Shown piece by piece: positions 6,441 through 6,664 of a stretch of 10,994 nucleotides of DNA; the first letter of the stretch is position 1, and the number at the start of each line of letters is the position of its first letter. This DNA comes from a virus. The translations under genes and the position numbers were made by a program. The notes beneath the pieces were generated by a model that saw only the letters and a program-made list of their open reading frames with translations, had not been told where the DNA came from and did no database searches. Where the stretch lies: the IMG/VR virus record IMGVR_UViG_3300031669_007558; one strand, 5' to 3'.

Positions 6441-6664
6441 ATTTAGAATGCACCTGCCTTGAGGTACAAGGACTCAGTTATGAGTGGAATAATTAAATGG
6501 TTCTTGACTCGGGAGAGGATAGGTGTCCCGGGCTTCTTGACCAGGCGAATGGTTCTGGCGGCATAATAATCAGCCTACAGATTATAAGGGTTTTCTCAAT
6601 CCTTTTGAAGGTTTGCACCGAGAGTAAAGAAGGGGAGGGACCGGATTACCTCCCCTTCATTTTT
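6441..6664 (+). ncRNA. Second candidate small structured RNA (~220 nt), bounded by two homologous terminators
   Basis: No credible ORF; the only track ORF (6497..6703) runs straight through the terminator hairpin. Hairpins CCTTG-aggta-CAAGG (about 6457-6471) and CGGGA-gaggataggtg-TCCCG flanked by a direct repeat TTCTTGAC (6503-6510 and 6534-6541). Ends with GAAGGGGAGG-gaccggatta-CCTCCCCTTC followed by aTTTTT (6629-6664). Confidence 0.35.
6629..6664 (+). terminator. Strong intrinsic terminator (10-bp GC-rich stem plus T-tract), paralogous to 6403..6435
   Basis: GAAGGGGAGG/CCTCCCCTTC stem with a 10-nt loop followed by TTTTT. Shares the AAGGGGAG...CTCCCCTT core and the trailing tttttaaaa with the 6403 terminator. 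Confidence 0.7.

Follow-up and report, generated by a model that had tools for sequence, protein, structure and literature searches.

The window analysed here is the whole 10,994-nt stretch of virus record IMGVR_UViG_3300031669_007558, and the element in question is u2, the stretch at 6441-6664, which lies between two intrinsic terminators (T1 and T2) downstream of a large structured RNA; related contigs and loci are referred to by L-numbers. Judged against its relatives, u2 appears to be an uncatalogued module of a new family of large phage RNAs, and we lean towards reading it as the last, separable 3' tail module of an RNA block of about 970 nt (5698-6670), made by read-through of T1.

The RNA block and its terminators

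The non-coding gap at 5698-6677 is, with 980 nt, by far the largest in the window, and the GC content of the non-coding block is 0.41-0.47 as against about 0.25-0.35 in the flanks. The block and its surroundings contain the following features:

5424-5452, + strand: promoter of Bacteroidetes type, TTTG-N17-TATATTTG, ahead of a 71-aa open reading frame (ORF) at 5482-5697
5698-5883, + strand: 5' extension of the large RNA, consisting of a further, reduced D1 copy with an "insert" domain
5884-6215, + strand: core of the large RNA, made up of D1, closed by the helix 5891-5899/6104-6112, and D2 (6118-6215)
6216-6402, + strand: "mid" module, between core and T1
6403-6435, + strand: T1, the intrinsic terminator closing the large RNA and marking the 5' limit of u2
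6439-6498, + strand: junction ("J") motif that opens u2, with an A/U-rich leader, an invariant GCAC (6450-6453), hairpin H1, the linker ACAAGG and hairpin H2
6496-6562, + strand: lineage-specific middle of u2, with AATGGTTCT and TTCTTGAC, the hairpin 6508-6514/6526-6532, TTCTTGAC again and the hairpin CCAG/CTGG
6587-6596 and 6601-6618, + strand: conserved 3' boxes of u2, AAGGGTTTTC and CCTTTTGAAGGTTTGCAC (with TTTGCA at 6612-6617)
6629-6664, + strand: T2, intrinsic terminator that closes u2

The first-pass annotation saw no credible ORF in this interval, and the closer analysis agrees. The stop codons TAA, TAG and TGA occur in all six frames across 5698-6680, and coding in an alternative genetic code was ruled out as well, since each of the three interrupts every frame. 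The ORF at 6497-6703 passes through T2 and overlaps the next gene, and tblastn against about 170 related loci, which does find homologues for three of five neighbouring ORFs taken as controls, finds none for it (best E 1.3).

T1 has a stem of 10 pairs (6403-6412/6425-6434, AAAAGGGGAG/CTCCCCTTTT), a 12-nt loop, AAUGCGCAAAAA, and a T-run at 6431-6435 (-13.2 kcal/mol). T2 likewise has a stem of 10 pairs (6629-6638/6649-6658, GAAGGGGAGG/CCTCCCCTTC) with a 10-nt loop, GACCGGAUUA, that includes CCGG (-20.6 kcal/mol), and its stem is followed by CA and TTTTT (6660-6664). Both show the GC-rich stem and U-tract of an intrinsic terminator on the transcribed strand, with loops larger than usual; the four other + strand terminators in the window have loops of 4-6 nt, and the automatic terminator scan, being limited to loops of 3-8 nt, missed T1 and T2 on the + strand. 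That the two terminators are alike and about 225 nt apart, as originally described, is borne out by an exact pattern, AAGGGGAG-N12-CTCCCCTT, which occurs only twice (6405-6432 and 6630-6657, spacing 225 nt) and is produced by none of 200 dinucleotide shuffles. This near-identity is confined to the window: the T2 hairpins of relatives carry UUCG or GCAA tetraloops, so that the likeness of T1 and T2 is no family feature, and the T2 of the window (GGGGAGG-gACCGGAtta-CCTCCCC) is closer to the T1 of L008 (GGGAGG-aaTCCGGAaaaa-CCTCCC) than to the T2 of relatives. An independent release of two RNA species, to which the duplicated terminators had seemed to point, is no more than plausible.

The loop of T1 contains the palindrome TGCGCA (6415-6420), and a GC-rich palindrome of 6 nt, usually flanked by adenines, is present in all six lineages with T1 (the homologous hairpins lie at about 4800 in L008, about 3755 in L012, about 5512 in L088 and about 335 in L005, and on the minus strand in L085). 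The palindrome reads TGCGCA in the window and L085, TCCGGA in L008 and L012, CCCGGG in L088 and TCGCGA in L005, and four differing palindromes imply several paired substitutions that preserved self-complementarity. A palindrome of this length is unable to fold on itself. Symmetric intermolecular kissing loops have been deduced from covarying palindromic loops in GOLLD (L21a) and OLE (L9.3) (PMC12286853), and the T1 loop, which resembles them, suggests by analogy that the large RNA may self-associate through its terminal hairpin by RNA-RNA kissing.

Inside u2, the reported hairpin of CGGGA (6510-6514) and TCCCG (6526-6530) is present and extends to 7 pairs (6508-6514/6526-6532, loop GAGGATAGGTG, -11.2 kcal/mol); the direct repeat bracketing it was also recovered, as two copies of TTCTTGAC at 6501-6508 and 6534-6541. 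A third copy lies on the - strand at 9343. With a chance expectation of 0.57 per window and at least three copies in 8 of 200 shuffles, the 8-mer count alone is weakly unusual, while two copies 33 nt apart around a hairpin are more so. A second repeat, AATGGTTCT, occurs at 6496 and at 6548, the latter inside the loop of the hairpin CCAG/CTGG (6541-6544/6555-6558). The corresponding position in relatives holds a covarying hairpin (GATTTT/AAAATC in L012, GATTT/AAATC in L011, CATTTT/AAAATG in L019) preceded by U-rich sequence, GGTTTTTT..CTTCT, and the U-rich motif before hairpins (GGUUUUY / CUUCU) is about 14-fold enriched in the family. The TTCTTGAC pair is probably best read as the lineage version of this theme, in which a covarying hairpin comes after a U-rich single strand (GGUUUUUU..CUUCU).

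Further downstream, the conserved 3' boxes are collinear with CCTTTAAGCTTTTGCA in L008, CCTTCGAGCTTTTGCA in L093 and ACGTTTGAAGTGTTTGCAC in L004. Among ten u2-type regions, GGTTTT has 13 occurrences spread over eight of them (0.92 expected) and TTTGCA is found in seven (0.73 expected); AAGGGTT has six occurrences in such regions (0.17 expected). In its layout u2 comprises a conserved junction motif, a fast-evolving middle of hairpins that come after U-rich single strands, a conserved GGGUUUUC ... UUUGCA box and its own terminator.

Two further ideas about the relation of u2 to its neighbours were rejected. The core loop GAACCATT (6026-6033) is perfectly complementary to both copies of AATGGTTC, but this is at chance level: the complementary 8-mers between core and u2 are matched by 344 of 1000 shuffles, and the pairing is unconserved in relatives. 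An origin of u2 as a recent tandem duplicate of mid finds no support in alignment (global z 0.39, local score below the shuffle mean), the terminators being the only parts alike.

Conservation and modular arrangement in relatives

The core segment (5884-6215) has nhmmer matches in 14 diverged lineages, and in every lineage whose sequence continues past the RNA it lies upstream of a vault-protein gene. RNAalifold on nine sequences yields 73 pairs, 36 of them with compensatory changes, the long-range helix that closes D1 included. In Rfam 15, no family reaches its gathering score in the window, and none has a match at E<=10 over 5600-6800 apart from terminator look-alikes (sraA at 18.8 bits, gathering 56, and SSRC38 at 16.5 bits, gathering 80, both on terminator hairpins). 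The large RNA appears to represent a class of large phage RNA that is as yet undescribed. A blastn search of 5690-6680 in distant mode against 50,697 GenBank phage records returned no match, and the core pattern CCTAAGGTAGTNCCGG..CCACGA had none in 185,579 prokaryote genomes, which gives no sign of a cellular or prophage copy.

The other parts of the large RNA vary in their placing. The insert domain of the 5' extension sits inside D1 in L088 and L085 (window 5751-5869 matches L088 5074-5190, E 1.5e-19), and a core-plus-mid query aligns through T1 in L008, L012, L088, L005 and L085. The co-occurring natural variant L186 (1628-1928) retains the extra D1 copy and lacks 5893-6117, the domain closed by TTGAATTCG/CGAATTCAA, which points to domain shuffling within one population. 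The RNA block itself is 100% identical in L174-L189 (16 contigs from at least 8 samples). Many assemblies end inside it, at window positions of about 5713, 5725, 5853, 5892, 6201 and 6384-6388, and these breaks are consistent with assembly having been confused by strain-level variants such as L186.

One tie between u2 and its relatives is the junction motif, in which H1 pairs 6452-6455 with 6462-6465 (alternatively 6457-6461 with 6467-6471) and H2 pairs 6472-6476 with 6481-6485. A covariance model, R1, comprising leader, GCAC, H1, linker and H2, was built from six relatives with the window left out, and was used in place of a hairpin descriptor scan that gave mostly false positives and missed known sites. 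Its best match in the window is 6439-6498 (23.0 bits, E 0.0014), at full length and with both hairpins formed. In A6, the alignment on which R1 was trained, 90% of cells are paired, a level reached by none of 500 shuffles and compared with 27-44% in slid controls; four of the nine pairs change on both sides, and H1 occurs as ACCT/AGGT, ACCC/GGGT, ACGT/ACGT, CGTC/GACG and ACCTC/GAGGT. Compensatory changes across related contigs, which had been proposed as a check, were therefore found in the junction hairpins, both of which are kept in this way in seven lineages.

Alignments by nhmmer seeded in the large RNA extend to window position 6508 with L012 and to 6456 with L008. The junction motif also opens mid directly after the core in L005, L012 and L006, so that it behaves as the 3' junction of the core. 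The u2 module as such is kept in at least eight diverged lineages, and homology of u2 is claimed only for its ends, the junction motif and the 3' boxes, where it appears limited but real. The modules are arranged as follows:

Window, L008 and L012: the common order of core, mid-T1 and u2-T2
L006: core, a long mid without T1, u2-T2
L093 and L186: D2 running straight into u2, with a single terminator at the end
L016: D1 running straight into u2 (D2 not detected), with a single terminator at the end
L088, L005 and L085: core and mid-T1, without u2
L011: core abutting tRNA-Leu, with a u2-like element after the stop codon of the vault-protein gene
L004 and L094: u2-like arrays of hairpin + GAGGUUUUA repeats, without the large RNA

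What follows u2 differs from lineage to lineage: L008 and L093 have tRNA-Leu(CAA) there, L186 has an ORF resembling methylglyoxal synthase and the window a 58-aa ORF, and L012 and L006 share a small ORF with homology to the window's 71-aa ORF at 7000-7215. The first-pass annotation had set conservation in relatives as a test of the region, and the outcome is divided, in that the junction motif and the 3' boxes are kept, while u2 is absent from L088, L005 and L085 and its middle is unalignable. The arrays of L004 (1994-2347) and L094 (4316-4660) are non-coding and consist of 3-5 tandem units of hairpin + (G)AGAGGTTTTA; the unit of L004 is GAGGGTGCAC-TGGCtaccatataGGCCAG, present three times, and some arrays close with a T-arm-like GGTTCGAA. 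They are possibly free-standing modules of the u2 kind.

Proposed transcription of u2 and rival readings

The promoter at 5424-5452 is the only recognisable one upstream of the RNA block; the sigma-70 scan also flags 5441-5468. Scans for both types found no sigma-70-like or Bacteroidetes-type promoter on the + strand at 5469-7255, with no sigma-70-like site on that strand at 5469-7403 and no TAnnTTTG site at 5446-7136. The ORF at 6678 starts 13 nt past the T-run of T2, and since no promoter of its own is recognisable, some read-through of T1 and T2 would be needed to express it.

Of the two possibilities offered by the first-pass annotation, a 3' domain with an internal terminator has gained ground and a discrete small RNA gene fits less well. 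We favour u2 as a tail because in four lineages (L093, L186, L016 and L006) the large RNA and u2 are not separated by a terminator, because the downstream neighbour of u2 varies while the RNA upstream of it is constant, and because 5469-7255 holds no recognisable promoter. Transcription would enter from upstream, the likeliest start being the promoter at about 5445. Most polymerases would halt at T1 and release a tail-less RNA, a fraction would pass T1 and halt at T2 to give an isoform with u2 as its 3' tail, and a smaller fraction would proceed into the small ORFs at 6678-7215, which are without a recognisable promoter of their own. The tail would fold independently as a peripheral appendage outside the folded core and would probably serve as a platform to which a protein or another RNA binds.

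A number of observations weigh against this picture. Beyond its first ~60 nt and the UUUGCA box, the u2 of the window has no detectable sequence similarity to relatives, and an nhmmer profile of the relatives' full-length u2 finds nothing in the window at E<=1. The folding energy of 6441-6670 taken by itself is unexceptional (z = -1.75, with 8 of 200 shuffles as stable), and the case for function must rest on the relatives. A canonical T1 separates u2 from the core in the window, L008 and L012, so that without read-through of T1 there would be no u2 from the upstream promoter. Moreover, u2 is dispensable in L088, L005 and L085, where the large RNA is intact, and is placed elsewhere or detached in L011 (after the vault-protein gene) and in L004 and L094 (as arrays without the large RNA), a pattern no less expected of an autonomous element than of a domain. 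On this reading, the main rival, u2 would be a small RNA gene in its own right, about 215 nt long, that starts from an unrecognised promoter overlapping the tail of T1, ends at T2 and acts in trans on protein or RNA targets. The two good terminators that bound u2 agree with it, huge phages may use promoters outside the scanned types, and a conserved TA(A/G)(A/G)AT-like hexamer resembling a -10 element lies just before GCAC (TAGAAT in the window, TAAAAT in L012, TAAGAT in L093). We nevertheless regard an independent gene as unlikely. The hexamer is accompanied by neither a -35 element nor a Bacteroidetes -33/-7 motif; in L093 the core ends 10 nt before it and leaves no room for a promoter; a start 6-8 nt past it would remove GCAC and half of the covarying H1; and the element of L011, directly after a stop codon, resembles a 3' untranslated region.

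It is improbable, for its part, that u2 is largely a non-functional transcribed spacer left by recombination of variant RNA cassettes, with only its terminator under selection. The unalignable middle speaks for a spacer, as do three further points: the RNA block and two small ORFs (5698-6999) are an insertion relative to L004, the closest vault-protein relative (88%), domains of the large RNA have been duplicated, deleted and shuffled (window 5698-5883; L186), and the T2 of the window resembles a copied T1-type hairpin. Against a spacer stand the compensatory changes in both junction hairpins, the strong enrichment of the GGUUUU and UUUGCA boxes and the retention of the module across at least eight diverged lineages. 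A role as a cis-acting leader, in which u2 controls the downstream ORFs through T2 in the manner of an attenuator or riboswitch, is highly improbable, even though 13 nt lie between the end of T2 and the ATG at 6678 and in L012 and L006 an ORF lies within about 20-25 nt of the terminator. Such a leader could exploit a strand-swapped T1/T2 conformer enclosing u2 (6398-6668), which at -83.1 kcal/mol comes within 1.6 of the minimum-energy fold (-84.7 kcal/mol) because T1 and T2 share stem sequence; but the similarity that enables the swap is found in the window only and is unconserved in relatives, so it is given little weight. The downstream gene is in any case unconserved (tRNA-Leu, differing ORFs or nothing), and relatives have no conserved antiterminator complementary to T2, so that the marks of an attenuation leader or riboswitch are absent. 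Hardly any credence is given to the TTCTTGAC repeats and hairpins acting as DNA, whether as protein-binding iterons, an origin or a packaging signal. Two exact 8-mers do surround an inverted repeat, as noted when binding sites were first proposed, but there are just 2 copies there, the 8-mer count is weakly above chance (8 of 200 shuffles), and the exact sequence is unconserved, with relatives keeping only a strand-specific U-rich motif and covarying stems; the block as a whole is strand-specific, GC-enriched and bounded by coding-strand terminators. The U-rich family motif preceding hairpins fits the repeats better.

Known RNA classes and the phage setting

GOLLD and ROOL are large, ornate phage RNAs that were recently found to build RNA-only cages. 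The RNA of the window shares with them that it is phage-encoded, several hundred nt long, richly covarying and located among tRNA genes, and that it combines a conserved part with highly variable ones; set against the descriptions of GOLLD and ROOL consulted, it differs in having as its variable part a 3' tail that comes after an internal terminator and is equipped with a terminator of its own. GOLLD (RF02032) has no hit in the window at its gathering score (150 bits), nor over 5600-6800 at E<=10; the same scan detects GOLLD in L088, L008, L006, L015 and L094 and so is sensitive in this clade. The window likewise has no covariance-model match to ROOL or to any other Rfam 15 family. The GOLLD-type context of a phage-borne RNA in a tRNA island is present, although context alone does not establish membership. 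On these comparisons u2 appears akin to the variable peripheral parts of GOLLD/ROOL-class RNAs while belonging to neither.

In L088, L008, L006 and L015, GOLLD (154-162 bits; gathering 150) lies 60-350 nt upstream of the core, whereas L094 has GOLLD without the core and the window has no GOLLD. A motif, GTTCTTTAAAATATTGAA, with 0-3 mismatches, directly precedes the GOLLD starts and most core starts; it is absent ahead of the RNA of the window and ahead of u2, and may be a phage promoter or a processing signal. The GOLLD loci (154-163 bits, each with an embedded tRNA) and the motif sites are:

L088: GOLLD at 4357-4840; GTTCTTTAAAATATTGAA at 3891 and 4927
L008: GOLLD at 3771-4250; GTTCTTTAAAATATTGAA at 3305 and 4309
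L006: GOLLD at 2893-3371; GTTCTTTAAAATATTGAA at 2433 and 3451
L015: GOLLD at 2923-3401; GTTCTTTAAAATATTGAA at 2455
L094: GOLLD at 2985-3469
L014: GTTCTTTAAAATATTGAA at 4675
L085, minus strand: GTTCTTTAAAATATTGAA at 7765

The uncatalogued large structured RNA thus seems to share a hypervariable tRNA-island locus with GOLLD. What is known of other RNAs offers further parallels. The dimerisation initiation site of human immunodeficiency virus type 1 is a palindromic kissing loop, and the T1 loop is comparable as an adenine-flanked, GC-rich palindrome of 6 nt that changes across lineages yet stays self-complementary. Unlike that site, it belongs to the intrinsic terminator hairpin of a phage RNA, and its dimerisation is a prediction; the T2 of the window has CCGG only, and the T2 of relatives have tetraloops. 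Bacterial small RNAs that are terminator-bounded or derived from 3' ends finish in a Rho-independent terminator, contain U-rich single strands and are released from a longer transcript. With its ~200 nt, its Rho-independent terminator, its U-rich single strands and its possible release from a longer transcript, u2 resembles them, but no seed or target is identifiable in it and it is associated with a large structured RNA and not with an mRNA, except in L011. Sponge RNAs such as CsrB and RsmZ repeat a short motif between or in hairpins, the motif for CsrA being GGA in a loop. Repeats of hairpin and short motif (RAGGUUUY, GGUUUU), from 1 to ~5 per RNA (L016, L094, L004), recall this arrangement, yet the motif is not GGA in a loop and the window has only 2-3 degenerate copies.

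The vault particle consists of major vault protein (MVP), TEP1 and vault RNA, and vault RNAs and Y RNAs are partners of TROVE-domain proteins. The phage encodes both a full-length MVP homologue and a TROVE protein, with u2 as a small structured RNA nearby; in contrast to those RNAs, u2 has no Rfam Y_RNA or Vault match and its ends form no panhandle. The Ro-binding motif of the GGUCCGA type (PMC4201824) is absent from the window, and a single GGTCCGA in L019/L013 is at chance level. As for Y RNA or YrlA, there is no tRNA-like element in 5698-6670 and the TROVE gene is ~14 kb away. The RNA block stands directly upstream of the vault-protein gene in the window and in about half of its closest relatives, and a phage vault-like particle has been considered whose RNA component would be the large RNA with its u2 tail; in it, the core would self-associate through the palindromic T1 loop and u2 would be the handle for the TROVE protein or the vault shell, by analogy with vault RNA and TEP1. 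Taken as a whole, this proposal has only a very slight chance of being right. A literature search found no paper that ties phages, major vault protein and RNA of such a kind together, and none that describes phage vault proteins.

The window is of interest as a further uncatalogued RNA of the GOLLD/ROOL kind that shares the GOLLD locus in related huge phages, with a covarying, self-complementary T1 loop as a candidate oligomerisation contact. Naturally occurring variants that have or lack the tail, and that have or lack the internal terminator, are a ready comparison of what peripheral modules add, and the neighbourhood of vault protein, TROVE protein and amber-suppressor tRNA may link RNA cages and protein cages in phages. 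The value of u2 lies mainly in the insight it gives into the modular build and genomic company of its large RNA, the tail alone being of moderate interest.

All genes of the window lie on the + strand in AT-rich DNA. tRNA genes are found at 99-184, 333-414 and 4004-4090, and relatives have up to 15 tRNAs upstream of the RNA block and tRNA-Leu(CAA) just downstream. The vault-protein gene (7675-10110), about 1 kb downstream of u2, encodes an 811-aa homologue of the eukaryotic major vault protein, with MVP_shoulder (6.8e-28, Pfam), Vault_3 (1.1e-11), a band-7 region and an E/K-rich C-terminus. A scan of viral contigs with this protein as a single query gave no matches, whereas alignment-based scans did find relatives; the protein has more than 6,400 metagenome relatives, many on viral contigs of 100-530 kb, and homologues occur in the uncultured phage records LR756500-503 of 462-735 kb. 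L001, apparently the same phage, overlaps the right-hand part of the window and further along encodes a radical-SAM protein, a thioredoxin, a tRNA(CUA) and a TROVE-domain (Ro60/TEP1-like) protein at 11939-12570, downstream of the vault-protein gene. The virus is a huge phage and its host probably a member of the Bacteroidota, the host being suggested by the TTTG-N17-TATATTTG promoter and by the Por_Secre_tail proteins present in relatives.

The tRNA with anticodon CUA, an amber suppressor that ARAGORN labels tRNA-Pyl, lies at 7736-7809 of L001, downstream of the vault-protein gene, and a suppressor tRNA occupies the matching relative position in 11 of the 17 relatives' loci scanned; the TAG stop is used by only one of 19 window ORFs. 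Near the left end of the window, the tandem paralogous ORFs 513-1541 and 1628-2662 match polysaccharide lyase family 14 (6e-22 and 2e-9), and each is followed by a terminator of bidirectional appearance (1544-1567 and 2689-2710).

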